Origin: a virus | Taxonomy: Duplodnaviria > Caudoviricetes | Direction: 5' to 3' (one strand) | DNA: 41,983 nucleotides | IMG/VR virus record: IMGVR_UViG_3300030097_000100 | Coordinates: 1 to 41,983 of that record | In this document: one piece after another, positions 8,967-38,773 of the stretch | How the letters are laid out: every line of letters begins with the position of its first letter | Numbering within the stretch: position 1 is the first letter of the stretch | Made by a program: the position numbers and the translations under genes | The notes under the pieces: model-generated | What the model saw: the letters and a program-made list of their open reading frames with translations, nothing else | What the model was told of the DNA's origin: nothing | Databases searched by the model: none

Positions 8967-10349
8967 ATGTCTGCAAACAATCTAAATAAACAATTCGTGG
9001 CTAATATGCGACAAAATCAGCGTAGGCCACTTAATTCCATTATACCTAGTGCGCCGGTTAATTTTGGCGATACTAACAGAAATGATTCGGCTGCTTATGG
9101 ATATCCTGATGCAATTGAATTTGATGTGCTGTATAACGCATATCGCCGCGGCGGTTTCTTTAATGCTATTGTTGATATTATTCCAGAGCGTTGCTTTAGT
9201 GATGACCCATTTATAGTTGATGGTGATGAAGATACGCCGCAAGATACGCAGTTTGAAAAAGAAGTTAATGAGCTGGTCAAAAAGTTTGATTTATGGCGCG
9301 TGTTTGAGACATCATTCAAAATGGCTGATATTGGTCAATACTCAACAATTGTACCTGTAATCTCTGAGTCATCTGAAAACAAATTAGAAAATCCAATTGT
9401 GCAAGGTAAGCGAATTATTGCTATCAATCCGTGGTATCAAGTTGAGTGCGAGGCTAACCAGGAGTTTGATCCAGACTACAGCAGCGAAAATTACAACAAG
9501 CCGCTAACTTACCGCCTACAGCCATCTCAGTTAAGCGGACGCCAAACAACTAATGCTACACAGCATACATTGCACTACAGTCGCGTAAACGTCATTACAA
9601 ATGCAGTAGGTGCTACCATTTACGGAGAGTCAGTTTTAGAGCCAGCATTTAACGCTTTATTTGATGCTAACAAAGTGCGCGGTGCATCTAGTGAGGGTTA
9701 TCGCAAGAATGCAATGCAAAAGTACATTCTAAGCGCTAACAATGCAGATGCTGCAAAGTCATTTAACACTAATAAAGACGCTATGGATGAGGCGCTAGAT
9801 AATTTCAACGATAACTTTAACAGCGCGTTAAGAATGGCTGGTGTAAGCGTAACAAGCCTACAAACACAACTACAAGACCCAAAGAGCGCATGGGAAATAT
9901 GCGTGGTCGAGGCATGTGCAAGCCGTGGCGTACCATTAACTGAATTGGCCGGCTACATCACAGGCGAGCGAGCAAGCTCAGAAAATAGCTCAGCATTCAC
10001 CAAGCGCCTTAAAAAATGGCAGAAGAAATACGGCAATGACATACATAGGTTTTTTCAGTGGCTAATTAATTTGGGTTTACTGTCAGAGCCTAGCAACGGT
10101 GAATTTAAAGTGTGTTGGCCTGATATTGGTGAGCCTAGCACGACCGAAAAGCTTGATAATGCTGGTAAGATGACTGAGCAAAACGAAAAAGCGTTCAAGG
10201 CTGGTGAAGAAAAACCGTGGACAATGGAAGAAATTCGACAGGCTGGCGGCGCTGATTCTGAAAAGCCAAAAACTAAATATGATGATTTTGACGCTAAAGA
10301 CGATTTAACATTGGATGATAAGCCTGATGAAGAAAATACGCCAGATTAG
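8967..10349 (+). CDS. Portal protein (DUF1073 family)
   Basis: YGYP, YRRGGF..AIVD, LHYSRV, YGESVLEP.FNAL, SEGY.KNA, P.T.L.G..TGERAS; 460 aa followed by MuF. Confidence 0.85.
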   Translation: MSANNLNKQFVANMRQNQRRPLNSIIPSAPVNFGDTNRNDSAAYGYPDAIEFDVLYNAYRRGGFFNAIVDIIPERCFSDDPFIVDGDEDTPQDTQFEKEVNELVKKFDLWRVFETSFKMADIGQYSTIVPVISESSENKLENPIVQGKRIIAINPWYQVECEANQEFDPDYSSENYNKPLTYRLQPSQLSGRQTTNATQHTLHYSRVNVITNAVGATIYGESVLEPAFNALFDANKVRGASSEGYRKNAMQKYILSANNADAAKSFNTNKDAMDEALDNFNDNFNSALRMAGVSVTSLQTQLQDPKSAWEICVVEACASRGVPLTELAGYITGERASSENSSAFTKRLKKWQKKYGNDIHRFFQWLINLGLLSEPSNGEFKVCWPDIGEPSTTEKLDNAGKMTEQNEKAFKAGEEKPWTMEEIRQAGGADSEKPKTKYDDFDAKDDLTLDDKPDEENTPD

Positions 10350-11403
10350 CACTTACCCGGTTATACCTAATGACGCGGCAGACCCAGCAAATCAAAAGGG
10401 GAATTTAAAGCGCGCCCAGGTAGAATTAAAAAAGCGGTTCGAGCGAATTAATAAAGCCGTCAAACAATTATGCCGAGACCAAAAGCAGCATCAAAGTGTT
10501 GCGGCTGCTAATAGTAACCGTATGAGTTTTTGGCAACCGCTTGAGTATTTTACCAATAGCAAAGGCGAGCTTGATACGCGCAAATCTGATGTGTTTATTG
10601 CTAACAAGCAGTTTTATAGCTATGACATATCAACAGAGCGCTACGATTCTATCAATAGCTTTATTGAGCGCTTACTTTACAGTGAGATATTGGAGTCTCT
10701 AGATGGACGCAGACCGCAAAACTGGTTTTATCAATCATATCTATCAAGTGCAACTCAAGACGCGATACGCGACACCATACAGTCATCAAAGAACATGGCT
10801 GAGCCTAGTGTTGTTGGTGATGAAATAGCGATGCTGGTTAGGCAGTTAGACGCAGACGCATTTAACCCGCAGCAAATTAACTCACTAAATCTAGTTTACT
10901 CGCGTGTGTTTAATGAAATGAAAGGATTAACTGACTCAATGAAAGTTAATCTATCAGAAACACTAACACGCGGCATGGCTAACGGTTTAGGTATTCAGCA
11001 ATTGACGCGCGATGTTGCTAAGCGTGTAGGTGTTGGATTTAGCCGAGCGCAACGCATATCACGCACTGAAATAATGGGTGCATACAGGACGGCGCAACGA
11101 GATAAAACACGCCAGATTAACAAGGATATTTACGGCAATTCACCATTCATACAAAAGCAGTTATGGTTTAGCGCTTTGGCTATGACAAGTCGCCCTCATC
11201 ATGTTGCAAGGCACTCTGAAATTTACAGCATTCAGGAAGTTGAAGAATTTTACAGTGAAGTAGCCAATAGTATTAATTGCCAGTGCTCCCAAAGCCCAAT
11301 ATTGGTAAACCGCAAAACAGGCGCGGTAGTTATGCAAAGCCTAATTGATAAAATGAAATTGCAAAAGAAAGCTTGGCGCGCTGGAGTCGCTAGAGCGGCA
11401 TAG
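10315..11403 (+). CDS. Head morphogenesis protein (SPP1 gp7 / MuF family)
   Basis: RAQRISRTEI, WFSAL..TSRPHH..RH, INCQCS. Confidence 0.88.
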   Translation: MISLMKKIRQISTYPVIPNDAADPANQKGNLKRAQVELKKRFERINKAVKQLCRDQKQHQSVAAANSNRMSFWQPLEYFTNSKGELDTRKSDVFIANKQFYSYDISTERYDSINSFIERLLYSEILESLDGRRPQNWFYQSYLSSATQDAIRDTIQSSKNMAEPSVVGDEIAMLVRQLDADAFNPQQINSLNLVYSRVFNEMKGLTDSMKVNLSETLTRGMANGLGIQQLTRDVAKRVGVGFSRAQRISRTEIMGAYRTAQRDKTRQINKDIYGNSPFIQKQLWFSALAMTSRPHHVARHSEIYSIQEVEEFYSEVANSINCQCSQSPILVNRKTGAVVMQSLIDKMKLQKKAWRAGVARAA

Positions 11404-11408
11404 TGCCA

Positions 11409-11437
11409 TTGACAAAACCACCTCTCTACATTATCAT
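11409..11437 (+). promoter_or_regulatory. Near-consensus sigma70 promoter with no downstream ORF
   Basis: TTGACA(11409-11414)-17-TATCAT(11432-11437). Confidence 0.65.
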
Positions 11438-11443
11438 CTAAGT

Positions 11444-11535
11444 GTCAAGTTTAGATAAGTTGTATTAAAATACTTATTTCAAGCCGTTGCAACCCACGTA
11501 ACGGATAGTAAAAAACCGCTTAATTGCGGTTTTTT
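11444..11535 (+). ncRNA. Candidate ~90-nt small RNA
   Basis: Lies between the promoter and a terminator; hairpins ATAAGT/ACTTAT and CCGTTGC/GTAACGG; no ATG-started ORF. Confidence 0.45.
11510..11535. terminator. Bidirectional intrinsic terminator
   Basis: AAAAAACCGC-ttaatt-GCGGTTTTTT. Confidence 0.85.
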
Positions 11536-11564
11536 ATTGCTTTTGTTTTCTTTGTATGAATAGT

Positions 11565-19831: not shown

Positions 19832-21916
19832 TTACCTCTTTGCATTGTTTGAGTAGTTGCCGCCTGACTTCATAGCATTATACATTGAGCCGCGCCCTTT
19901 TTGTAGTTTGCCAGCCTCGTTGCCAATTTCAATTTTGGCAATTCCAGCAGCCTCGTCTCTAGTGACAAACACTTGATATGGTGTGTAGTTATTAACCTCA
20001 ACACTCATACTTGAACCTCTACCAGCTTTATCAAGTGGCGTAATATTGGCGTTTTTAGTATTCATCAAGTAGTCTTTGCCACCTTGGCTATACACTTCTG
20101 GTACACCTGTTTCATTTACACGATACATACCATTTGATACTGGCCCACCGTATTGTCGACCACCCATTAATGAAGGTAGCGCTGCAGCTGCTGCTGATAC
20201 TGCAGCTATACCTGCAAGTGCTGGTCCTGAGTTTGCGCCAAAGCTTGCCAATGATGTTGCCGCCGCCAATGGAACGGCTGTGCTTAATACCGTTGCATTT
20301 GCCGCTGTTTGAGCGGTTGCAGCTGTGCTACTTGCAATTGCAGACGCTATACCTTGTTGTATTATTGCGCCCACAACTTGAGTTAATATTGTTCTGGCCA
20401 ATCCTTTTAGTGCATCTTCACCATCTTGCGCGCCTAAAACGATATTACCTAGAGTTCCTGCTATTTGCGTATCAAGGTTACCGAAAGCATTTTCCATAAA
20501 CTGATTTGTTTCGCCTTGAAGATTGCGAATTGCATCTTGCTTTTCTTTCTCAAGTTGCACTCTTCTATCAGCGTAAGAACCTTCAATTTCAATCTTTTGC
20601 TCTTCCGCTTGATTTAATAGCTCAAGCTCTTGTTGGTATCTTGCTTGTATTTCTTCAAGCGAAGTTAAACCAATGCTTTGCACTTGCGCTGTTAGCGTTG
20701 CTGTTGCTTTTTGATCTTCAACTTTCATTCGCTCGATTTGCTGGTCAAGCCACTCAAGATCGCTTTCTGTTTGTCTTCTTACTGACTCTTCGTATTTTTC
20801 ATTTGCTTTTGCCGCTTCTTCTGTTGCTCTATTTGTGGCTTCAAGCGCTTCTTTTTTATCGTAAAGAGTTAATATTTCAGCCTGTTGATTTGCATCAAGT
20901 CCGCTCATTAATAGCGACCATTTCAACGCTGCTTTTTCACCACTCTTTAACTCAATTATATTTTCGAGTAGTGCGTTTTTCATATCCTTAAACGAATCTG
21001 CTGAAATTGAATTTGATTCGCTCAATGATTCTTGTGATTGAGCTAGCGCCGCATTGCTTGCTATTGTTTGTCTTACTGCATCTGAGAATGTAAAAAACTC
21101 ACTGGCATACTCAGCAAGCTCTTTAGTTGGAAATACACCATTCTTGCGCATATTTAAAAGCGCTTTTTCAGCTTGGTCTAATGCCTTTAGCTTTTTATCA
21201 TCACTTGTTGCTGCGTTAAAATTACGCATTGCGCCGGTTATATTAAGTATTTCACCGGTCTTTGATGTTAGTCCTGTAAGCCTTTTTGCTGCATCTTCTG
21301 CGTACTCTTGAAATCCTATTAACTCCGCACCTAAAGCTAAAGCCTCTTTTCTTGCTGAGCTCATGGCTTGTGCGTTTTGCGTCATTGCTAAAGCTATTTT
21401 TATTTTGGCTAGATTTTCAGATGCTGTGTTTAGCTTTTTTATTTCATCTGTGTACTTAGCAACCCCATCAGCGCCGACAGTCATTATAGCTTTTGTGTTT
21501 TCTATTGCTTTTTGTAGCTTTTCAATATTTGATACGCTGCCAAAAATAGCAGGGGCAAGAGTGCCAGCAAGGACGGCGGCAAGCGACACGAATACACCAA
21601 TCAAAGGCGCGCCTAGTACAATACCTAAATCCGCTGATTGCTGAGCAAGCGCAACCATTGCAGATTGACCACCCTGTAACTGGCCAGCAAATTGTTGTAT
21701 CTGAATACCAGCCTGGCCAAGGTTGCTGCCAAATGCGCGCCTTACACCTTGAGATGCCTTTGTTGTTTGCGCATTGAAATTTTTAACAGAGTTATCAACC
21801 TTTTTAAAGCTATTACTCATGCTGTCAGTGGCTTTTGTTGTGACTGTTTGAGCCTTTAAAACATCGGTTGTTTCAACTCCAAATTCATACCATATGCGAC
21901 CAGCGTTTTCTGCCAT
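19832..21916 (-). CDS. Tail tape measure protein
   Basis: Ala/Gln-rich helical protein; GQAGIQIQQF..QLQGGQS..VALAQQ..DLG; GGRQYGGPV...YRVNE.G.PE; start ATG 21916. Confidence 0.92.
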   Translation of the reverse strand: MAENAGRIWYEFGVETTDVLKAQTVTTKATDSMSNSFKKVDNSVKNFNAQTTKASQGVRRAFGSNLGQAGIQIQQFAGQLQGGQSAMVALAQQSADLGIVLGAPLIGVFVSLAAVLAGTLAPAIFGSVSNIEKLQKAIENTKAIMTVGADGVAKYTDEIKKLNTASENLAKIKIALAMTQNAQAMSSARKEALALGAELIGFQEYAEDAAKRLTGLTSKTGEILNITGAMRNFNAATSDDKKLKALDQAEKALLNMRKNGVFPTKELAEYASEFFTFSDAVRQTIASNAALAQSQESLSESNSISADSFKDMKNALLENIIELKSGEKAALKWSLLMSGLDANQQAEILTLYDKKEALEATNRATEEAAKANEKYEESVRRQTESDLEWLDQQIERMKVEDQKATATLTAQVQSIGLTSLEEIQARYQQELELLNQAEEQKIEIEGSYADRRVQLEKEKQDAIRNLQGETNQFMENAFGNLDTQIAGTLGNIVLGAQDGEDALKGLARTILTQVVGAIIQQGIASAIASSTAATAQTAANATVLSTAVPLAAATSLASFGANSGPALAGIAAVSAAAAALPSLMGGRQYGGPVSNGMYRVNETGVPEVYSQGGKDYLMNTKNANITPLDKAGRGSSMSVEVNNYTPYQVFVTRDEAAGIAKIEIGNEAGKLQKGRGSMYNAMKSGGNYSNNAKR

Positions 21917-21981: not shown

Positions 21982-22596
21982 ATGCTTACACGTTACGGGT
22001 TCGGCGCAATTTATATAGACGATAAAGAATACAAAATCAGCCCGACTTTTCAGAATATAGATAAACTAGGCACGCCAAAGGAAATAATAGAAACGTTTAC
22101 ATCGTTTTTTAATTGCCCGTCTATTAATTGGCAGTACCATAGAGCAGTTGAAATACTTCAAGCGTGTTGTGAGCCAAAACTACCAGATAGTGCAACGGGT
22201 AGGTTTAAGGTTTACGAAAATGGCAAGTTAAAGCTAATCAACCCACCAAGCCAAGACTTTATGCACGATATAATTGTGCTAGCTAGTCACTGTTTAAAGT
22301 ATGGCGTAATAGGCGTAACCGATAGCGAATCAGAAAGTGAAGGTGAGCCAATTAAAGAGTTTGATGTTTATTTCTACATTGGATTAGCTTGCGAGCATTT
22401 ACGAAAGTCACGCGAAGAAGCGGCTGACATGACGTTAACAGAGTTTTTAATGGCGTGGGATATTAAATTTCCAGAGGCTAAGAAGAAGCGTGATGAGCGA
22501 CTAACTAAAGCTGAGCAGCAAAGATTAATGGATTATCAAGACGAGCTAGATAGAAAAGCCGCTCAACGAAGAGCGGCAAAAAAGACTATGGATTAA
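21982..22596 (+). CDS. Putative tail assembly chaperone (DUF6246-like), inverted relative to the tail genes
   Basis: YG...I....Y...PTF.NI..LG.P.EI, EFDV..YI..A..HL..S.EEA..MT.TEF...W..KFP; sits between tail tube and tape measure. Confidence 0.65.
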   Translation: MLTRYGFGAIYIDDKEYKISPTFQNIDKLGTPKEIIETFTSFFNCPSINWQYHRAVEILQACCEPKLPDSATGRFKVYENGKLKLINPPSQDFMHDIIVLASHCLKYGVIGVTDSESESEGEPIKEFDVYFYIGLACEHLRKSREEAADMTLTEFLMAWDIKFPEAKKKRDERLTKAEQQRLMDYQDELDRKAAQRRAAKKTMD

Positions 22597-23101
22597 TAGA
22601 CTCTGACTGATATGTTGCGTTAGTATCATCATAAGTGGGTATAGCCGTGAAGGTAAATTCACCTGTACGGTTTCCCTCATTCTCAGCGCTACGACCTAGT
22701 GATGTAACGTTGCAGAAGTAATAACGGTATTCTTCCAGTAACGGGTCAAGAATACGCACCCACACAGATGGTTGGCGACCTGCTTGCACCTCCGTAATGT
22801 AGTAAGTACGTAAAGCTTGTTGTGAGCTTACGTTAACCACATCTTTTGCATCAAGCACGCTAGCAGTAATCTCAATATCACTACCAATTACAGTTGTATC
22901 TGTGTAAATACCGCTTGAGTCTGTGTTGCTTGTTACTGTGCGCGGTGTCAAGTTTTCTCCGCGTGTTTCAACAAACCCAAGCTTGGTGTAAACAAGTGGT
23001 GTTGTTGCATTTTTTGTTGGGTCGTCTGTGCCACAGCCTTGCACCCATGAAAGTACTAGACCGCGACCAATGCCGATTGGTTGGCTATCACATGTTGCCA
23101 T
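22586..23101 (-). CDS. Major tail tube protein
   Basis: IGRGLVL...GCG.D.P, KLG, TVTS.TD, RQPSVWVR; GAGG RBS; neck-tube-chaperone-TMP position. Confidence 0.8.
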   Translation of the reverse strand: MATCDSQPIGIGRGLVLSWVQGCGTDDPTKNATTPLVYTKLGFVETRGENLTPRTVTSNTDSSGIYTDTTVIGSDIEITASVLDAKDVVNVSSQQALRTYYITEVQAGRQPSVWVRILDPLLEEYRYYFCNVTSLGRSAENEGNRTGEFTFTAIPTYDDTNATYQSESINP

Positions 23102-23144
23102 AATTTTATACCTCTTTAAATAAATTGATAACGTTATCGCAGTG

Positions 23145-23153
23145 ATTATACCA
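23145..23153 (-). promoter_or_regulatory. Extended -10 promoter for the tail tube gene
   Basis: TGgTATAAT on the minus strand just past the terminator. Confidence 0.55.
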
Positions 23154-23164
23154 TTTATTTACAG

Positions 23165-23663
23165 GCAATAAAAAACCGCCAAATAAATGACGGTTTTTGA
23201 TGGAGATTAATGTACTGTAGGGAAACTGTTTTAATTGTTTAATTGGATTGATACAAAGTGCATCGGTTATTCGGCGGACGCTTAATCTTAAGAAAGCACT
23301 TTCTACCATGAAAAGCTTAGTGCTATCGCCAATCACAGTATTTTAATTGGTTTGCACAACCAACACTCGCCGAATACCGATAAACTCTGTAAAAATACTA
23401 ACATCTATCATCACGACAGTAGTCAGTTTGCTGCTAACCGATTTTAACCATAATCGGATGGAGATAGTATCACCGCCTATTAAGTTGGTTTATCTAGTTG
23501 CTGACATATACCATTCCAGCTTGCGGTTTACTGTTTTCTCATCCTGATTTCTGCACCTCAGAATACAGGCAATAAGGTTGCATTTGTTTTTTATAAGAGT
23601 CATTAAGGCTAAATATCTCTTGTCTTTTCCTGTGTCTTTACGTGCTAACTTCTGCACTGCACA
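23165..23663 (-). ncRNA. Candidate ~500-nt structured non-coding RNA
   Basis: Own promoter and terminator, no credible ORF, long-range stem 23368-23391 with 23252-23276 plus several nested hairpins. Confidence 0.55.
23170..23198. terminator. Bidirectional intrinsic terminator
   Basis: AAAAAACCGCCA-aataaa-TGACGGTTTTT; on the minus strand the stem closes with a U-G pair. Confidence 0.75.
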
Positions 23664-23669
23664 AAACAA

Positions 23670-23698
23670 ACAATAATACTAAACTTAATATATGTCAA
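23670..23698 (-). promoter_or_regulatory. Sigma70-type promoter reading into the non-coding gap
   Basis: TTGACA(23698-23693)-17-TATTGT(23675-23670); the same -10 hexamer is seen at 29760 and 35645. Confidence 0.6.
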
Positions 23699-24135
23699 AC
23701 ATTAAATTTAACAATTAGATTAATTTCAAATACTGCTCGACTATCTTCGGTAAATAATGGATTAGAAACTCCGCGAGTGCTTATTGATGTTATGCACTGG
23801 CTTGATGAAAAGTAATTATCAATTAACCACTTATAAATGTCAGTAGCAAAACCTTTAGTTATTGGTAAGTCTTCATCATTAGCTTTGCTAAACACAGCTA
23901 TCAACATAGGCACGTCAATGATTCCTTGATATGGACGACCAAAACTATCAGATCCATTTTGACGCACAAGTATAGCTCGCTTATTATCTGCAAGATTTGT
24001 TAGGTCAATCATGCCAGCAACAGAGTCTGTAGCACCTTGAGCATTACTAAAGCAATCAGTAAATGATGCTAGCAAGCCGCTTGATTTAATATGCTCAAGA
24101 AGTCGAACTTCTTCAAAATTAGCTATAGTTGTCAT
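23695..24135 (-). CDS. Tail terminator protein
   Basis: Last neck gene; P..TED.R.VFE..L C-terminal pattern. Confidence 0.65.
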   Translation of the reverse strand: MTTIANFEEVRLLEHIKSSGLLASFTDCFSNAQGATDSVAGMIDLTNLADNKRAILVRQNGSDSFGRPYQGIIDVPMLIAVFSKANDEDLPITKGFATDIYKWLIDNYFSSSQCITSISTRGVSNPLFTEDSRAVFEINLIVKFNV

Positions 24136-31008: not shown

Positions 31009-32082
31009 TTATGCGCCAGAAGCGTACACAGTTGATTTCAAGCCGCTAAATGTATTCTTAGACTGGAAGCCAGCCGCGAACCATTTAACGAACTGGTACG
31101 GGTCGTTGTGCTTAAAGCGTGGCATTTGGTAGCTTGACATCATCATACCAACTTTAGCATGTAGACCTTGCTGACCGATAATAGAGATTAAAATCTGATT
31201 GCCTGAAAGCTGACTATCTGCTTGTATTGACGAAAACTCAGGGATTAGCTGGCTAACAGCCGCCATGATATTCATAAAACCAGTGTTGTTTGATGCACCG
31301 ATGCGCTGGAAGTTAGACATGATTTGTGGTGATACTTTCAACACAAATGGACCAGACTTCTTATTTGCAATGCGCAGAACATCAAGAGCCGCCAGCAATT
31401 CTGCAACCGCTTCTGCGTCGCTTGTAGCTGATGCTGATAAGTCTTTTTGCAGTGTGTACGTTGCAATTGAGCTATCACCTTTTAAGCCACCCCAAACCGC
31501 TGTATCAACTTTAAGCGATGCATCACCATTCCAAAGATAGTCATTCACATCTTCAAGCAATGAAAACTCAATTTCCATTGAATCTTCTGCAAGCGCTGGC
31601 AAAGCCTCGCTTTGCATAGCTGCAACATCACGGAAGTCACGCTCATAGCCACCGTCAAAGATAGGAACGATAGTTTTTTGATAGTTACTTTCAGTCTTAT
31701 CCATCTTAATATCAGTTTGACCTGACATTGAGCGGGTAATACGGCCTGCCTCACTGTATCGGCGAGATTCAATAACTTTCTTACCAATGCTTACAGTTTG
31801 AGCTGTTGATAGTAAGTCACCTAAAAGGTTTTGTGAACCCCAATCGCGATCTTCACCAGTTGCAGTACCATCAACTAAGCGGTACATTTCGTCAACGCGA
31901 AGCATATTAACTGACATATCTTTTTCGGCTTTATTTACGCCAAAAGTTTCGCCTGTATGCTTCAGTAAATCCAATGACGCATTAACACCCGATTTACGGA
32001 AGTCTTGCAAGTCATTCCATTGGCGGTTTAGTGCATGTAGCTCTTTGCCGCTTTTACCTTTAAAATTAAAATAAATGCTCAT
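31009..32082 (-). CDS. Major capsid protein
   Basis: 357 aa after protease and decoration genes; VSIGK, RSMSGQ, VPIFD.G..RD.R, YLWNGD. Confidence 0.88.
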   Translation of the reverse strand: MSIYFNFKGKSGKELHALNRQWNDLQDFRKSGVNASLDLLKHTGETFGVNKAEKDMSVNMLRVDEMYRLVDGTATGEDRDWGSQNLLGDLLSTAQTVSIGKKVIESRRYSEAGRITRSMSGQTDIKMDKTESNYQKTIVPIFDGGYERDFRDVAAMQSEALPALAEDSMEIEFSLLEDVNDYLWNGDASLKVDTAVWGGLKGDSSIATYTLQKDLSASATSDAEAVAELLAALDVLRIANKKSGPFVLKVSPQIMSNFQRIGASNNTGFMNIMAAVSQLIPEFSSIQADSQLSGNQILISIIGQQGLHAKVGMMMSSYQMPRFKHNDPYQFVKWFAAGFQSKNTFSGLKSTVYASGA

Positions 32083-32092
32083 CGTTTACCCC

Positions 32093-32542
32093 TTAAAGTG
32101 CGCGACATAAAACTAAAGTGCCAGCGGCAGTTACGTTAATAACTTCTTCTGTCACTGCGAATAACTGCTCAGTGCCATCAGTAGCCCCAAGTTTAAAATC
32201 ACCGTCGCCGTTAGATGCAACCGGCAAACCTTTGCTTGTTACGTTTTGCGTGTTTGCAAATGATAGCAATACAAAATCACCAGTGTTAACCGAGATAGCT
32301 TCAACTGTATCACCAACAGTAACCGCTGTAGACGTTGAACCGCCTAGAGTTTGTGGCTGGTCGTCACAGATTAAAAACTCGTTACCGAATGTGGTAGATG
32401 CTTTAGCTGTTACATCGATTGCACTAGCTGCACCACGTGCAAGTAGCTGACCCGGTTTAAATGCAGACTGCGCTAAACCTTCAATTGTTTGTTTGATACG
32501 ACCTACGCCGCCAACAAAAATACTGTTTTTTCCTGCTGCCAT
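32093..32542 (-). CDS. Capsid decoration protein
   Basis: N.IF.GG, EG.A..A.KPG, G..VASNGDG; between protease and capsid. Confidence 0.75.
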   Translation of the reverse strand: MAAGKNSIFVGGVGRIKQTIEGLAQSAFKPGQLLARGAASAIDVTAKASTTFGNEFLICDDQPQTLGGSTSTAVTVGDTVEAISVNTGDFVLLSFANTQNVTSKGLPVASNGDGDFKLGATDGTEQLFAVTEEVINVTAAGTLVLCRAL

Positions 32543-32547
32543 TGTGA

Positions 32548-33924
32548 TTACTCCTCAAGACCAGGTTTGCGCGAACGGTATTCATCTTCGCTAGAGTTAA
32601 TATTTACATTGCGACCACTATGCTGTGCGCCGTAACCTTCCGCTAAAAACTCAGCACCGTTAGCTGCCAAGAATGCTTTAGCTTTAGTTAAGCCCAATGC
32701 TTTTGCATCTTCTGCGTCTAATCCTTTATTAAGCGCTGCAACTTGCTCAGCTACTTCATTAAGCTCTTTATCAGCGTTAGCTGTTAGTTGGTCTTGCAAA
32801 GGTTTAACAGCGGCGTTAACAGCTTGTTCAACGATTTGCGTTACATCTTCTTTAGTAAAACCCTCACTAGCATTTACGGCAAGCTTAGATTTCATTAGAG
32901 TTTTAAGCTCATCGTCTGAGACTTGGCTATTAGTAGCTAAGCCTAACGCTTCGAGCATTTCACTACGATCCATAATTAGATCCTCATTTAGTTGGTTTAC
33001 GTCAAATTCTTGACTATTGTAGCCTTTATCTGTGGCTGGTGCAAAAACGTTAGCCTTTACAAATTTCTTAACTACTTTTTGCGCCTCACCAGACAGTATT
33101 ACAGAGTCATTACTATCAATTTCATAACCTAGCTGGTAATAATTACCATCGTCAGAGTCGTCAATATAAATGAAGTAATTATCATAAACCTCAACAACCC
33201 ACTTGTATCGCTCGCGCTGATTATCATCGTTAACTTCATCATTTAATTGACGCCTAATATCATCATGACTAAGCGCGTTAATTCCTGCCAGCTTCTTAGC
33301 TGCATTCCACGCCTTTTTTATTCTGCTTCGCTTATCCTTACACTGTTTATCTAATGGCTCGTAATCGTCAACATTAAACACTTGAACATCTTCACCATTA
33401 AAGCGCATAACAGTAGCATCACCACCGGCAGGCTTTTCCGATTCGTGAAGCATGGCAAGGTGGTCAAATGACATATTGCGAGCAATCATCTTGTAACCTT
33501 CGCCACTTTCGTTGTTAGCTTCAAAAGTTAAACCTGTGCTTACACCGATAGGCTCGCCACTATCTAGACGATTAGCAAAGTATTCACCCATATCAGATGC
33601 GCGCAATTTCTTCTCGTCAATATCCGAATCAGCATACCAAACACCATCTTTATTGTAAGTGTTAGTAACTTTACCGCCAGAATAGAAATCAATGCCATCA
33701 GGCGAGAATACGGACACATTGCGACCGTCATTATCAGCAGGATGGGTTAACGTCATAGGCATGCCATTTAAAGTTTTCATGCCTTTAGCATTTTCGTCTG
33801 CTGGGTATTTAATGTTATTCATAATGGCACCATCAACAGTGATAGGAATGCCATTAATTTGATACTTGCCGTCAGACTTTTTAACAGTCGTCTTGCTAGT
33901 GTTTGTTGCTAGTATGATGCGCAT
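32548..33924 (-). CDS. Capsid maturation protease / scaffold (DUF2213 family)
   Basis: VDGAIMN...YP, P.TLTHP, VSTGL, FDHLAML...PAG; Ala/Glu-rich scaffold C-terminus. Confidence 0.85.
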   Translation of the reverse strand: MRIILATNTSKTTVKKSDGKYQINGIPITVDGAIMNNIKYPADENAKGMKTLNGMPMTLTHPADNDGRNVSVFSPDGIDFYSGGKVTNTYNKDGVWYADSDIDEKKLRASDMGEYFANRLDSGEPIGVSTGLTFEANNESGEGYKMIARNMSFDHLAMLHESEKPAGGDATVMRFNGEDVQVFNVDDYEPLDKQCKDKRSRIKKAWNAAKKLAGINALSHDDIRRQLNDEVNDDNQRERYKWVVEVYDNYFIYIDDSDDGNYYQLGYEIDSNDSVILSGEAQKVVKKFVKANVFAPATDKGYNSQEFDVNQLNEDLIMDRSEMLEALGLATNSQVSDDELKTLMKSKLAVNASEGFTKEDVTQIVEQAVNAAVKPLQDQLTANADKELNEVAEQVAALNKGLDAEDAKALGLTKAKAFLAANGAEFLAEGYGAQHSGRNVNINSSEDEYRSRKPGLEE

Positions 33925-33961
33925 AAAAAAGCCCCATGTGTTAGATAGGGCTATTGTATCA
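33925..33961 (-). promoter_or_regulatory. Extended -10 promoter overlapping a terminator-like hairpin directly before the protease start
   Basis: TGaTACAAT(33961-33953)-AGCCCTAT/ATGGGGCT stem-T run-ATG 33924. Confidence 0.55.
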
Positions 33962-33987
33962 CTTATTGTTAGCGTGTAAAAATGGGG

Positions 33988-34164
33988 TTAAGTTAAATAT
34001 TTATCAACGCCTTTAGGCTTGTTTTGCCTAATAAACTTTTCATAGTTTGCTATTTCTTTCTCAATCTTTGCCACTTCTTCAATTTCACCTAGTTCGCTAT
34101 GAGCTTTTGATTTAGCGCTAAGCTTTTTAATTTGTCGCCTGTAGTAGCTAAGATTGATACTCAT
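33988..34164 (-). CDS. Hypothetical protein, 58 aa
   Basis: Hand-read MSINLSYYRRQIKKL...DKYLT with GAGGGA RBS. Confidence 0.6.
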   Translation of the reverse strand: MSINLSYYRRQIKKLSAKSKAHSELGEIEEVAKIEKEIANYEKFIRQNKPKGVDKYLT

Positions 34165-34345
34165 TAAATCCCTCTCTTTCTATATCGCGCCAACCTGTGA
34201 CACGGTTAATTGGAAATAGACCGCCGTTAGCGTAAAAGCGGCCCACCTTGTAAGTGGCAATAATATAGCCAGCGTGTTGGCCATCGTTACCGTTAAACTT
34301 GCATAGTAGTGGCTTGTTAGTTGGTATTTGCATTATCACGCTCAA
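34148..34345 (-). CDS. Hypothetical protein
   Basis: ORF within the cassette. Confidence 0.55.
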   Translation of the reverse strand: MSVIMQIPTNKPLLCKFNGNDGQHAGYIIATYKVGRFYANGGLFPINRVTGWRDIEREGFNEYQS

Positions 34346-35024
34346 TCATTGCCTGTTTAAGATAACAAGCTAAGTCTAAAGCTTCTTCGTAGGCATCCTG
34401 TAAAGCATCACGACCGTTGCTAGCCCTAAGCGCTTCACCATATGTCTTTATGCCTATTTCCATTCGCTCAGTTAAATCAATCATAACCTGAGCTACTACT
34501 GGTTTGTTTTTTTGCATTGCTACCTCTTTTTCTTTTACGTCACCTAAATCAACTTTTACGCATCCGCTATATTCACCACACCGCTTTAAATTATCACGCT
34601 CATTCATTAAGCGCTTAAGCTTACCTATTGCCATTAGTTGGTTGTAGGTTAGTTTGCGTTTTGCGCTAAGCTCTAAATCATACGTTTCATTATAGATAAG
34701 CTCGATGTGAGTCGATTTAATTACAAGACCGCGAGACTTATCATTACCATGACGGCAAAAGCCGCTTACAGTTAGGTCGTAATTAAGGTAAGGATTAAAA
34801 CCAAACAACCCAAACACCTCCACAGCATCATTATACTTCTGCTCTGTGTCTAGCTCTGATTTTGGTATGTAGTCGCCTTGGCGTGGCTCGTTTAGTTGGA
34901 AGTCACCATAATGGCCAATATCTAAATCACCACACATTAATTTGTTAGAAATATAACTTGCTGCGTATCTTTGCTCTCCATCTGCATAACAAACCGCACC
35001 TTCTTTCCATTCAATATTATTCAT
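34317..35024 (-). CDS. Hypothetical protein with C-terminal all-alpha NTP-pyrophosphohydrolase (MazG-like) domain
   Basis: ER...GIKTYG..L...NGRDALQDAYEEALDLACYL acidic helix motif. Confidence 0.55.
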   Translation of the reverse strand: MNNIEWKEGAVCYADGEQRYAASYISNKLMCGDLDIGHYGDFQLNEPRQGDYIPKSELDTEQKYNDAVEVFGLFGFNPYLNYDLTVSGFCRHGNDKSRGLVIKSTHIELIYNETYDLELSAKRKLTYNQLMAIGKLKRLMNERDNLKRCGEYSGCVKVDLGDVKEKEVAMQKNKPVVAQVMIDLTERMEIGIKTYGEALRASNGRDALQDAYEEALDLACYLKQAMIERDNANTN

Positions 35025-35034
35025 AACTCAACCC

Positions 35035-35265
35035 CTAATTTACAGCAGATAAATCTTCGTTAATTGCTTCTCTTGCGGTATATCCATCAACAAAATAATC
35101 AAACCAACAATAAATACCAGTTAAATTCTCCAACAATCCTTTCCCATAGTGCTTTGTCTCGCTATGCACCTTGTTTAGCTCATCAAGCCAAACTTCGAAT
35201 TTTGCCTTTTCGTTTTCACACATAGATTTGATTAAATCTTCATCTTTAATATTCATATCACTCAA
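35035..35265 (-). CDS. Hypothetical protein
   Basis: W.DYF.DGYT..EAI.ED C-terminal motif. Confidence 0.65.
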   Translation of the reverse strand: MSDMNIKDEDLIKSMCENEKAKFEVWLDELNKVHSETKHYGKGLLENLTGIYCWFDYFVDGYTAREAINEDLSAVN

Positions 35266-35569
35266 CCCCTATTTCAAAATCATCTGCCATTGCAGAAAGC
35301 AGCTCACACAACCCATCACTCAACAACTCGCGCAACTCGTCACGACAATCGCAGCACTCACCACCGTCTAGCCATTTATTTAGCGTTGGCATTACATCAA
35401 TATCACACAACACATTATCGCGCGATATAAAAGCCTCTTTGCTTAGCTCTGTACTGCGGTCGTATTGCACTTGGTTATTTAAAACCAACTCAGCCGCGCC
35501 GTGAATCCAATCAACGCGGTTAATATTCATTGCAGCATGCGCCGCCTCTTTTGCTTTTACTGTTTGCAT
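35258..35569 (-). CDS. Hypothetical protein
   Basis: GGAG RBS; first gene of the leftward cassette. Confidence 0.7.
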   Translation of the reverse strand: MQTVKAKEAAHAAMNINRVDWIHGAAELVLNNQVQYDRSTELSKEAFISRDNVLCDIDVMPTLNKWLDGGECCDCRDELRELLSDGLCELLSAMADDFEIGVE

Positions 35570-35599
35570 TTACAATCTCCATTTATTTATCTGTGACTA

Positions 35600-35650
35600 A
35601 ATATAATATTAAACAAAACACTTTACAAGTTTTATTTTTATAGTTATTGT
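35600..35650. promoter_or_regulatory. Back-to-back sigma70 promoters with overlapping -35 boxes
   Basis: Plus TTTACA(35622-35627)-17-TATTGT; minus TTGTAA(35628-35623)-17-TATATT. Confidence 0.6.
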
Positions 35651-35679
35651 TAGTGTGAAATTAATTATTGGAGATAGAA

Positions 35680-36462
35680 ATGAAATATCCGTATATAGGA
35701 AAAGGCACAGAAAGCGGCAGCATTATATTAATGACAGGTAAAGGAGAGGGCATTGTTATAGATAGTAAAACAGCGGCAACTCATCCTGGTAAGTTTGAAT
35801 CAACTGTAGATGAGGATTACTTCAAAAACATCACCCGCGAATACCTTGATGGCAAATGCGTTAAAATTGAATCACATGAGCATAGCAAGCTTGTTCAAAA
35901 GGTGGCTTTTGGCGCTGGTTTTCAGTGGCCAGAATCTTTTGGCACCATAAAGCATACTGGATATAAGTTCTTATTCTTTAGAGTTAAAGGCTTAATCAAT
36001 TGTGGTCATGAAAATAATAGTAAAGTCCAGCAAATCACAATCCCGCTACCACCCAAACAAATACAAACAGCAACATTAGAGGAAGAATTTGAAATGCAGC
36101 ATATTATGAAAAACAACGGTGACAATCTTATTTTAGGTTGTGAAGATTCAAAGTGTGAAGAGTGGCCGCAAGTTGGTGATGAGGTTGTTTGGGATAAAAA
36201 CGACTATAAAGGTATTGTAAAGGCTATTAGCGAGCAAAAAGCTTGGTGCAGGCTTAATAATGGGCTTTATTATACGATAAGCTTTGATAGACTTAAAAAA
36301 CCAAAAACACCAGAGGAAGAGTTGCGTGATGAAGTTACAGAGCTAGTATGGAAGGCTAACGACCTGTGGACTAATACGAAAGCAGTTCAACAAGTATCAG
36401 TGCAAGAATTTGTTGCAGCTAAGATAATTGGCAAATACAACATAACCAAAAAGCCGCAATAG
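35680..36462 (+). CDS. Hypothetical modular protein
   Basis: Long ORF; start ATG 35680 after GGAG; WPQVGDEV small-barrel-like segment. Confidence 0.75.
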   Translation: MKYPYIGKGTESGSIILMTGKGEGIVIDSKTAATHPGKFESTVDEDYFKNITREYLDGKCVKIESHEHSKLVQKVAFGAGFQWPESFGTIKHTGYKFLFFRVKGLINCGHENNSKVQQITIPLPPKQIQTATLEEEFEMQHIMKNNGDNLILGCEDSKCEEWPQVGDEVVWDKNDYKGIVKAISEQKAWCRLNNGLYYTISFDRLKKPKTPEEELRDEVTELVWKANDLWTNTKAVQQVSVQEFVAAKIIGKYNITKKPQ

Positions 36463-36467
36463 CGGCT
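36448..36467 (-). terminator. Probable terminator of the terminase transcript
   Basis: Minus strand AGCCGC-tatt-GCGGCTTTTT. Confidence 0.6.
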
Positions 36468-36478
36468 AAGGATTAATT

Positions 36479-36676
36479 ATGAAAGATAGTGAATACTTTT
36501 GCTCTTACATGACATCAATGAATGGGTTAATTAATGGTTATGGTGATTTTATTTTCACTGGAAAGGTAAATAATGCAAATAAACTACTTGGCGATATAAA
36601 GAAAGAGATAATAAGTAAATATTACAGCAACAACCAAGATGTTGAAATTGTTATTACAGCGCTAAATAAACTGTAA
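36479..36676 (+). CDS. Hypothetical protein
   Basis: AAGGA RBS; AT-rich ORF converging on terL. Confidence 0.6.
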   Translation: MKDSEYFCSYMTSMNGLINGYGDFIFTGKVNNANKLLGDIKKEIISKYYSNNQDVEIVITALNKL

Positions 36677-36681
36677 TAACT

Positions 36682-38298
36682 CTAACCAATAAAATCACTC
36701 ATCCAATCTGAGCTATCAACCACAGCAAAGGCCATTACGCCACCATCAAATAAGTTAGGGCTTGGTATACCGCGTTTAGCCAAGTCCTTCTTGCTCTCAA
36801 CCTTATCTTTGCCGTTGTTGTCAGTATCGCGCAATATGCGGCTCATCTCACTGATAAACTCGTCAAGCGTTTGCGGGTCTATTGACTCACTATCAAAACT
36901 AATCATTTCATCTTCGTTAAACTCTTCACCTTCCTCTAATGCCATATAGGTATTTTTCACCCTATCAGCAAATGACCAAGTTGACTGAGCCTTTACGTTT
37001 GAGAACTTATCTTTGTTAGTTTTGCCTGGTGCGTAATCATCGCTAGGGTTTACAATATCTTTACTGCCAGCATTAAAGCCAGTAAACACTACTTTTTCAT
37101 ATCCGTTTTGCGTGCTTCGCTCATCGTTAAACTCATCAAAGCTTGAGCCAGCATTTGAGCCAACGCCAACAGAGTCATAAATTATGCTTGCCTTGTTATC
37201 GTAAGCCAGATTGTAAACGCGCTTATATGATTTACGACTCTCATGCTCTTTGTGTTGCCACTTCGCAATATGAGTTATTACAGAGCCGTGACGCATTACC
37301 TCTGTGTTCCAATCTTTACCACCATCCATGATATCAAAGCCAATGACTTTAGCGCCAGACGGTTCAAAGCCCAACTTCTTATGTGCATCAATACACGCCC
37401 TTGCATAAAGCGCAGGTATTAACACACCCTCAACAGATGCATCATAGTCAACATCAATTTCTTGCGCTACCGTTACTGGGTCTTGCTCTCTTACTTGCTT
37501 ATCATACCAGTCTTGGTCTTTACGCGGGTCATCTTGCCATCTAAGGGTTAAAACTTTAACTTTTCCACTAAAGCGCTTGCGATAAAATGAATTACCATTA
37601 CCGTTTGGTGTTGATATATCTACCTGACAGTTAGTTGTTTGTGATAATGCAGCGTCCGCCGCTTCCTGTCTTTCAAGGAACGCGGCCTCATCTACAAAGT
37701 ATATTGATGTACGCGCACCACGACCAATATCATAACCACCCTCACCTGTTAGCGTTGAGCCGTTCTCAGGATTAGTTATCTTTAAAAAGTTAGCATGCTC
37801 TTTTTCTTTATATCCAACTGGTAAAAACTCTTTAGGTATAAAGCGTAGGAATTGACGGCCTTTCTCGAATATGCTTTTTGGGTCGCCTAAACGGTCAACC
37901 AAATCAACTTTACGCGAACCATAACCAGCCGTATAATCATCCCAAAATAGCCACATAGTACAGCCATAAGCAATAGACAGCCAAGACAAACCAAAGTCAC
38001 GCGTCTTTTCTACTAGCGCCCTTTCCCTATTCCTCCATCTTTCATGTATCCACTGCAAAGTTTCAACCTGTCTAGGGAATAGAATAAACGGCACAACCGC
38101 TGGCAAATCACGCTCAAGGTTACGCGGGTCGAATGTCATGCCCCAATCGGTTATAAAATCCCAAGGATGATTTTTATAGTGAACTTTTGCAGCGGCTAGT
38201 GCATTTGGATTTTTACGCAGAAAAGAAAGCCGTCTTTGTCTTTCTGCAAGGACGGCTGAGTAGTTTGGGTTTTTAAAGTCTATTTCAAGATTTGCCAT
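36682..38298 (-). CDS. terL: Terminase large subunit
   Basis: EKTRDFGLSW Walker A region, GRGART, YFVDEAA Walker B, ISTPNG, GFD..DGG.D nuclease, YDSVGVG, SPNLFD. Confidence 0.93.
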   Translation of the reverse strand: MANLEIDFKNPNYSAVLAERQRRLSFLRKNPNALAAAKVHYKNHPWDFITDWGMTFDPRNLERDLPAVVPFILFPRQVETLQWIHERWRNRERALVEKTRDFGLSWLSIAYGCTMWLFWDDYTAGYGSRKVDLVDRLGDPKSIFEKGRQFLRFIPKEFLPVGYKEKEHANFLKITNPENGSTLTGEGGYDIGRGARTSIYFVDEAAFLERQEAADAALSQTTNCQVDISTPNGNGNSFYRKRFSGKVKVLTLRWQDDPRKDQDWYDKQVREQDPVTVAQEIDVDYDASVEGVLIPALYARACIDAHKKLGFEPSGAKVIGFDIMDGGKDWNTEVMRHGSVITHIAKWQHKEHESRKSYKRVYNLAYDNKASIIYDSVGVGSNAGSSFDEFNDERSTQNGYEKVVFTGFNAGSKDIVNPSDDYAPGKTNKDKFSNVKAQSTWSFADRVKNTYMALEEGEEFNEDEMISFDSESIDPQTLDEFISEMSRILRDTDNNGKDKVESKKDLAKRGIPSPNLFDGGVMAFAVVDSSDWMSDFIG

Positions 38299-38773
38299 TA
38301 ATCATATCTTGGTAAATTCTCGTTGCTTCGGCTGGATCCATTTCATGTGTTATCTGTTTCACATCATGCTTAACAGAGCCGCTGTGCTCAATCTCAGAGC
38401 TATCTTTAAGGCCAAGGTCGCGAGCTATTATATTTGCATTTAAAACGCCACCAGCAGCGCCTGTGAACTTCTGCTCGCGCATTACCGACTCAATATGTTT
38501 AGTGACTTCCAAATACTCAGGCTTAGCTTTGTAGTTATGCCATGTTGAAGTGCTAATATTCAAGAAAACACAAAGACCATCTTGAGTCATTGCTCTCATC
38601 TTAAATTCATCACCGTAAATTATTTCACCTTGGCTTGAAAATGGTTTTTGAACATGTATAGGGTTTTCTTTACACCATGCAAAATACTCATAGGCTTTAT
38701 GTAGCATTTCATCAGGACAATTAAAGCATGGCGGCTTGCCTACGCTCTTTTTAGCTACCTCCCACAACTCCAT
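38285..38773 (-). CDS. terS: Terminase small subunit (P22 gp3-like)
   Basis: EYF.WC.ENP, RAMT..GLC.FL, QKF.GAA.G.LNANIIARDLGL. Confidence 0.9.
   Translation of the reverse strand: MELWEVAKKSVGKPPCFNCPDEMLHKAYEYFAWCKENPIHVQKPFSSQGEIIYGDEFKMRAMTQDGLCVFLNISTSTWHNYKAKPEYLEVTKHIESVMREQKFTGAAGGVLNANIIARDLGLKDSSEIEHSGSVKHDVKQITHEMDPAEATRIYQDMINGKS

Follow-up and report, generated by a model that had tools for sequence, protein, structure and literature searches.

The window analyzed here, a stretch of 41,983 bases taken at its full length, is the complete record of a marine virus with siphovirus-type structural genes, and RecT, YqaJ and SSB genes are also present in the phage genome. Its largest gap had been read in a first-pass annotation as the site of a large structured RNA between a tail terminator and a tail tube gene, and the placement proved right. 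Once the short ORFs within it are set aside, the gap spans 23102-23694 (593 nt; the next largest measures 318). A tail terminator gene lies upstream (23695..24135, minus strand; Pfam PF23842) and a PHROG major tail protein gene downstream (22586..23101, minus strand; phrog_1407 and phrog_853). Of the 18 records that match the gap DNA, 15 are from Pseudoalteromonas phages, which makes Pseudoalteromonas the probable host. Elsewhere in the genome, the plus strand carries portal and Mu-F-like genes at 8967-11403, a long way from the terminase and head genes (31009-38773), which run in the opposite direction.

Related loci were gathered by BLAST in phage records, by tail protein and by module patterns. 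After removal of repeats of the same contig, 31 loci (the window included) served for the counts of the clamp stem and of module B given below, and 34 for the comparison of T-arms and tRNAs. All the loci are related, some of them nearly identical, and the modules themselves served to find them; the counts are therefore biased and describe the set rather than independent events. A pattern scan of genome_contigs returned 20 matches; two of them (L052 and L058) carry module B and the other 18 look like chance.

Transcription unit and coding potential

A sigma70-type promoter, TTGACA-17-TATTGT, lies on the minus strand where it had been annotated (23670..23698), with a +1 that we infer to be near 23663. 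A consensus promoter scanner reported 8 promoter-like sites against 5.9 expected, and therefore the match by itself carries little weight. Across the set, the hexamer pair with a spacing of 17 opens the unit in 28 of the 31 loci. The other end is marked by an intrinsic terminator-like hairpin with a U-tract (23168..23198, minus strand; inverted pair I5). This hairpin, annotated at 23198-23170, is present (z -5.1), though missing from the output of the terminator scanner, and relatives have it at the same position with changed stems. The tube gene was also said to have its own promoter, and we found an extended -10 motif ahead of the major tail gene (23145..23153, minus strand) that recurs downstream in most relatives. 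Host polymerase would very probably make a primary transcript of ~495 nt, from 23663 to about 23170. The conserved promoter and terminator, the covariation described below and the lack of an Rfam match bear out the description of the gap as a non-coding, structured and previously undescribed phage transcription unit.

It is highly improbable that the gap instead codes for small proteins through its ORFs at 23669-23490, 23336-23106 and 23347-23547. The first of these, a 59-codon frame, does stay open over 52 codons in one relative (L020), and a real-looking small gene sits in the same RNA unit of two others (L007 and L028). Against this, no Shine-Dalgarno was found within 20 nt upstream of any of the three ORFs, the TTG at 23669 precedes the inferred +1, and stops break the homologous frames in L001, L003, L007, L034 and L047. 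The two ORFs that were tested had no PHROG match.

Mosaic architecture and insertion sites

In the direction of transcription the unit consists of modules A, C and B, a long clamp stem that encloses an interior (the payload), and the terminator. The best public record covers 34% of it, and no relative keeps all of it. Over the 34 related phage loci each module may be kept, missing or replaced regardless of the others. For instance, one relative (L047) has flanks 86% and 94% identical to those of the window, and there module C is absent, module B is another variant and the clamp holds another interior. A further relative (L008) has an empty 118-nt gap in which the cassette is absent, and two more (L009 and L010) have 287-nt gaps with other content.

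The insertion site of the unit varies as well: in phages H40/1 and C7 it lies in the tail operon, in Pq0 and PS_L5 it precedes HNH or terminase-region genes, and in L075 it stands between baseplate-type genes, antisense to its neighbors. The same payload class, that of PS_L5, occurs in L019 and L078, two phages with different insertion sites. Judged by these sequence comparisons, the gap is a modular small-RNA cassette whose modules are shuffled between phages. The RecT and YqaJ genes of the phage would offer a means of module swapping by short homology.

These sites also bear on a role in cis. In the manner of T7 RNase III sites, the unit could punctuate the late mRNA, with its terminator, RNase III site and pseudoknots cutting and stabilizing a read-through transcript and setting tail-tube levels. 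The co-orientation of the unit with the late genes at the tail site would fit such a role. We consider it improbable, given that the unit has its own promoter and terminator, that the tube gene has its own promoter, that the unit moves to unrelated sites and is antisense to its neighbors in L075, and that relatives with an empty site exist.

Two kinds of additional content were seen in the relatives. A further recurring non-coding module is shared by L009 (2740-2930), L010, L036, L049, L073 and L078, also in gaps that have neither module B nor the clamp. The small protein genes inside the RNA unit lie at 2108-2293 and 2708-2899 in L007 and occur also in L028; the second matches phrog_1761.

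Folding of the region

The first-pass annotation had described extensive pairing over the whole RNA. The whole region gave a folding z of -3.7 on the minus strand, but of -3.4 on the plus strand too. The signal is significant in the clamp with its interior (z -6.4) and in the terminator (z -5.1), whereas the 5' 274 nt (23393-23666, z -0.9) are no more stable than shuffles. None of 280 background windows of 150 nt fell below z -4.5. The lowest background values (-3.5 to -4.5; 15 shuffles each) were found on the plus strand at 901-1050, 11401-11550, 21601-21750 and 36601-36750.

Several of the individual helices that had been listed are sound. The sequences given for the long stem (23391-23368 with 23276-23252) are present and the stem forms in both the MFE and the centroid structure; the hairpins at 23347-23363 and 23438-23457 are present too. 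The segments of the hairpin at 23295-23324 are complementary, but another fold outcompetes it in the MFE and centroid structures of the excised interior. The pairing of 23472-23476 with 23523-23527 is broken at one end in L020, the only homologue of that part. Both reported repeats, the 12-mer included, exist, but neither is kept in the L020 copy of module C.

No Rfam family reached its gathering threshold in the window, and no match better than E=1 fell within 22900-23900. When 33 related loci were scanned along with the window, tRNA was the sole family to rise above chance, and no family matched the non-tRNA modules. Homologues do show covariation within module B, but no pairing between modules is conserved. 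These results speak against the proposal that had been made for this gap, namely a single ~500-nt ornate RNA that folds and works as a unit in the manner of GOLLD or ROOL. Such an RNA would be in keeping with the single promoter-terminator unit of ~495 nt and with the whole-region z of -3.7. It is very unlikely, considering that the modules are freely exchanged without conserved inter-module pairing, that no relative keeps the whole unit, that the 5' 274 nt fold no better than shuffles and that no GOLLD or ROOL model of Rfam matches. The long stem had been taken for part of one large fold; it behaves instead like a processing stem whose interior can be exchanged. Two pseudoknots and an RNase III signature had been overlooked.

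GOLLD and ROOL resemble the unit in being large, non-coding and phage-associated with unclear function. They differ in having extensive covarying structure over their length and forming multimeric cages, as described in 10.1101/2024.12.08.627333, whereas the unit is a shuffled mosaic. We found no match of the unit to the Rfam models of GOLLD, ROOL or OLE, and no single covarying fold over its whole length.

Predicted structures in the 5' part

Module A (23631..23663, minus strand), a short hairpin whose internal loop is conserved, mostly comes first in the transcript and was found by pattern in 19 of the 31 loci. Its alignment has mostly one-sided changes, with one two-sided change seen by eye (L045), and its structure is weakly supported because its z is -1.25. 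It is followed by a small hairpin (23595..23621, minus strand) closed by an AAGAG/CUCUU stem, which in phage H40/1 surrounds a longer insert of another kind.

Module C (23543..23580, minus strand) is a predicted H-type pseudoknot with one homologue only, in L020. Its stem pairs 23569-23559 with 23553-23543, and ACCU at 23578-23575 pairs with the loop AGGU at 23558-23555. Compared with L020, the outer stem has 2 two-sided changes, and the pseudoknot strands change together, from ACCU/AGGU to ACCCU/AGGGU (by eye).

Module B (23404..23495, minus strand) comprises an upstream hairpin and a P1-closed H-type pseudoknot. The upstream hairpin (23495-23462) competes with P1 (23466-23462 with 23409-23405). 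The other helices are S1 (23461-23459 with 23450-23448) and S2 (23457-23452 with 23443-23438), and a conserved junction, CNGUYGNG, lies at 23419-23412. The 3-bp S1 pairing is fully paired in 28 of the 31 loci and occurs in five types (CCA/UGG, ACC/GGU, CGU/ACG, CGA/UCG and CGU/GCG); the exceptions are L019, which breaks one pair, L052, which has a nested helix instead, and L049, which is without S1. In a MAFFT alignment of 17 rows, in which 4 ACC/GGU rows lie one column out of register and are counted as unpaired, 5 pairs had two-sided changes, a number reached in none of 500 shuffles under a control that ignores relatedness. By this comparative evidence module B is a covarying pseudoknot.

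A model of module B was run against 151 bacterial genomes sampled from the order and matched only its own source genome. In L075 module B scores only 20.5 bits, level with chance hits, and it is the sole match in that genome, just before the clamps. We also considered some known elements. A resemblance between module B and ToxI was considered and set aside, as the Rfam ToxI model RF02519 was unmatched in the cassette at E<=10 in 5 records. A search for tandem repeats of the pseudoknot unit found no tandem family in the gap. The R-box motifs of integron attC sites were absent by eye, and this reading was rejected too.

The clamp stem and its fit to RNase III

The outer part of the long stem, here called the clamp, has its 5' arm at 23376..23390 and its 3' arm at 23253..23267 (minus strand). 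Cuts are predicted, from the E. coli consensus, between 23377 and 23376 and between 23265 and 23264. Downstream of module B, where it was searched for, the clamp recurs as 35 copies in 28 of the 31 loci, and 5 more copies were found in 3 later loci. A clamp pattern scan that allowed only short interiors gave 0 of 401. In 28 of the 35 copies, what comes after the arms is a single bulged A and a ~7-bp stem, the geometry of a tRNA discriminator and acceptor stem. Among the interiors with a bulged A, 22 are distinct and fall into 16 classes without a BLAST link. In the first clamp of L028, L034 and L047, which holds a payload class of 121-122 nt, the central clamp pairs are changed and there is no bulged A in the usual register.

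The window clamp pairs at 11 of its 12 core positions and at 8 interior ones, with a single bulged A, a length in agreement with the roughly two-turn helix of an RNase III substrate. It matches the E. coli RNase III consensus WNAGWGNNCWUNNN^NAWGNNCWCUNW, which belongs to E. coli and is called weak in the passages of its source, at 14 of 16 positions (PMC4357697). Among 33,756 candidate duplexes taken from the two strands, one other scores as high and none higher, and base-pair shuffles of the window clamp reach 14/16 in 0.08% of trials (fraction 0.0008). For 28 distinct arm pairs the mean consensus score was 11.25 at the clamp register and at most 7.5 at 16 others, 4 of 33 clamp-like hits having been dropped before register scoring as they lay in coding DNA. 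The excess of G-U over A-C (50 to 15) in the clamps fits the transcribed strand.

We also compared the clamps with in vivo preferences of RNase III, which include G-C at the two central pairs and A-U or U-A at D and D' (passages of PMC6212723). Of the 35 copies, 29 have G-C at one central pair and 27 at the other. The D pair is A-U in 34 of 35, its U being fixed by the search pattern. Interior pair 2, which corresponds to D' if the bulge is skipped, is U-A or A-U in 22 of 22 interiors, against 60 of 132 cells at the other interior pairs; descent or recombination edges could also have caused this conservation.

One feature departs from an ideal substrate. In a minimal RNase III substrate, a C-G pair next to the scissile bond cut cleavage 7-fold, according to passages of PMC1540722. 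Beside the 3' scissile bond of the window clamp, the outer neighbor is C-G and the inner one U-A; C-G is found in 12 of the 35 clamps. RNase III sites are expected to have neither G-C nor C-G next to the scissile bonds, and the departure lowers reactivity without excluding cleavage. In addition, the bulged A, two positions from the 5' cut, could restrict cleavage to a single nick.

In a different arrangement, the processing or sensing would fall to module B or C, as a self-cleaving ribozyme or ligand-binding RNA of a new type, while the clamp would bind RNase III or another dsRNA-binding protein and escape double cleavage. In its favor, the pseudoknot of module B is compact, has an unpaired junction that does not vary and sits immediately 5' of the block of tRNA and clamp, and the clamp has the C-G pair beside one scissile bond. 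The arrangement is improbable: no Rfam ribozyme or riboswitch matched at E<=0.5-10, by eye we saw no hammerhead, twister, pistol, HDV or hairpin core, and in L052 a nested helix replaces the pseudoknot.

Clamped interiors

The payload slot of the window (23268..23375, minus strand) is a 108-nt interior with a predicted 8-bp closing stem and bulged A, and received no tRNA call. The predicted excised RNA (23376-23265) would measure 112 nt and fold into a cloverleaf of three hairpins, closed by a 9-bp stem and ending in a 3' ACC overhang (z -3.3). Compared with tRNA, it showed no T-loop, anticodon arm or tRNA score, and shares only the acceptor-like stem and unpaired A. BLAST and pattern searches found no homologue of this payload. 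A search for antisense targets within the phage genome gave best off-site matches of only 12-14 nt.

Some other clamps do hold tRNA-related RNAs. In L036 the clamp encloses a tRNA-Lys(UUU), supported by an ARAGORN call and 60.8 bits in Rfam, and in L017 a tRNA-like RNA that is a degenerate version of tRNA-Lys (46.1 bits in Rfam). A T-arm contiguous with the closing stem was found in 5 clamped interiors in all, and the clamped T-arm RNAs end in A-ACC where the tails were printed. Other interiors are pseudoknot-like, or hairpins of 23-24 nt, and most interiors are not tRNA-like. In total, ARAGORN called tRNA genes in 7 of the 34 loci: Asn(GUU) four times, Met twice, and Gly, Pro and Lys once each.

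Some individual interiors deserve description. The clamped RNA of phage C7 (L004:1771-1902), missed by ARAGORN and Rfam, has an acceptor, a D-arm, a variable arm and a T-arm, with a long insert at the position of the anticodon loop. Another clamped RNA (L005:2626-2734) combines an acceptor with a T-arm but has no D-stem, and where the anticodon arm would be there is a long helix; it is reminiscent of the tRNA-like domain of tmRNA. The 58-nt payload at L020:1777-1834 and L044:867-924 reads by eye as an H-type pseudoknot inside an acceptor-like stem.

The main rival to the reading developed below is a drifting tRNA operon with stabilizing RNA parts. Both cassette and processing would be as described; the tRNAs would aid late translation, and the other parts would be stabilizers, spacers or relics without any defence as their target. 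Its case draws on the tRNA-Lys that is intact in L036 and degenerate in L017, on clamps that hold only 23-24-nt hairpins, on close relatives without the cassette (L008), and on the part that RNase III takes in T4 tRNA maturation, as stated in passages of PMC4810235. We regard it as rather unlikely. Of the 34 loci, 27 have no ARAGORN tRNA and yet keep the promoter, module B and mostly the clamp; the compensatory changes in modules B and C indicate that folds other than tRNA are under selection; and the PS_L5-type payload recurs in L019 and L078 despite their different insertion sites.

Proposed processing and function

We conclude that the cassette is real and is a phage small-RNA operon of a new form, which would work like an RNase III processing stalk. 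Our preferred reading, to which we assign a probability of roughly 0.55, is that of a small-RNA cassette whose last stem is cut by RNase III to free an exchangeable payload, likely directed against host defences aimed at tRNA or RNA. Judging from the consensus, host RNase III would probably cut at YGG|U and ACC|R and thereby release an RNA of the form 5'-U-[payload]-A-A-C-C-3'. By what is generally known of the CCA-adding enzyme of the host, it might conceivably complete the payload end, a step that we put forward tentatively. The 5' part (A-C-B) would stay as a second stable RNA.

The purpose is the weakest step. Counter-defence, with the payload as a decoy or replacement against host systems that cut tRNA or sense RNA, is a speculative possibility, suggested by the rapid turnover and dispensability of the cassette, its Lys(UUU) and Asn(GUU) tRNAs and the precedent of pseudo-ToxI. 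According to PMC12409363, Lys(UUU) and Asn(GUU) tRNAs are targets of PARIS and are rescued by T5 tRNAs; the cassette family likewise has these two tRNAs, whereas the payload of the window is not a tRNA. PMC3475682 describes how pseudo-ToxI of phage PhiTE neutralizes ToxIN, a precedent for counter-defence by a phage RNA. That RNA is also small and phage-made, and the cassette differs in having neither tandem repeats nor a ToxI match. The presence in cassettes of tRNAs beyond Lys and Asn (Met, Gly and Pro) counts against the defence reading. For the window's own payload, a decoy role would be by analogy only. A bolder version, which we think unlikely, makes the clamp a plug-in slot from which RNase III, by one double cut and without RNase P, produces interchangeable tRNA-shaped decoys and other mimics against immune nucleases. 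Any clamped sequence would then become a stable RNA with an acceptor-like stem one pair longer and an ACC end ready for CCA.

Among known systems, the T4 tRNA region also has tRNA genes beside small non-tRNA RNAs, RNAC and RNAD, whose role is called unknown in passages of PMC3014915 and PMC9697503. In the cassette, by contrast, each payload is enclosed by a stem of its own whose borders fit the RNase III consensus, closely related phages differ in what the unit contains, and a tRNA is absent from most units. The comparison of sequence with RNAC and RNAD was made through Rfam. The stalks of rRNA operons and the T7 early-mRNA sites share with the clamp a long helix with the RNase III consensus and the in vivo pair preferences, and like the clamp, the stalk helix closes off an RNA to be released. 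The clamp differs in that the cuts predicted for it correspond to tRNA positions -1 and 76 of an insert of 23-132 nt, with the bulged A at the discriminator position, whereas T7 sites are local hairpins in mRNA. In the literature searched we found no description of the cassette. In the virus structured-RNA catalogue PMC10690425, the sample numbers of six contigs were absent from the 7 supplementary files searched; files 1 and 2 lay outside this search and may hold modules.

A role for the small phage RNAs that accompany tRNA genes, such as T4 RNAC and RNAD, has been missing for decades. The family includes cultured Pseudoalteromonas phages of ~35-45 kb (H40/1, C7, Pq0, PS_L5, AL, SL25, PHS3, PHS21, HS1, HS5 and XCL1123), which offer natural presence, absence and payload swaps together with exact predicted RNA ends, and so make the question testable. 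If the payloads are decoys, the slot catalogues at least 16 RNA classes that would point to host defence systems, and RNase III excision at tRNA borders, if true, would itself be an uncommon route of RNA maturation.

tRNA-like RNAs outside the clamp

The tRNAs that lie outside clamps have an encoded CCA in 6 of the 6 cases for which tails were printed; the tRNA-Gly of phage ZP9, a phage outside this set, is without CCA. Outside the clamp we also observed tRNA-like RNAs at L004:1594-1668, in L034 (minus strand, before the tRNA-Asn) and in L027, L036 and L078. These have an acceptor stem, a T-arm and an encoded CCA, with no normal anticodon arm. In those of C7 and L034, tandem G.A mismatches were seen by eye at acceptor positions 3:70 and 4:69. 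Finally, a hairpin in Shewanella phage ZP9 (L070:1480-1555), which is common to the payload of L032, lies just before the tRNA-Gly with no clamp.
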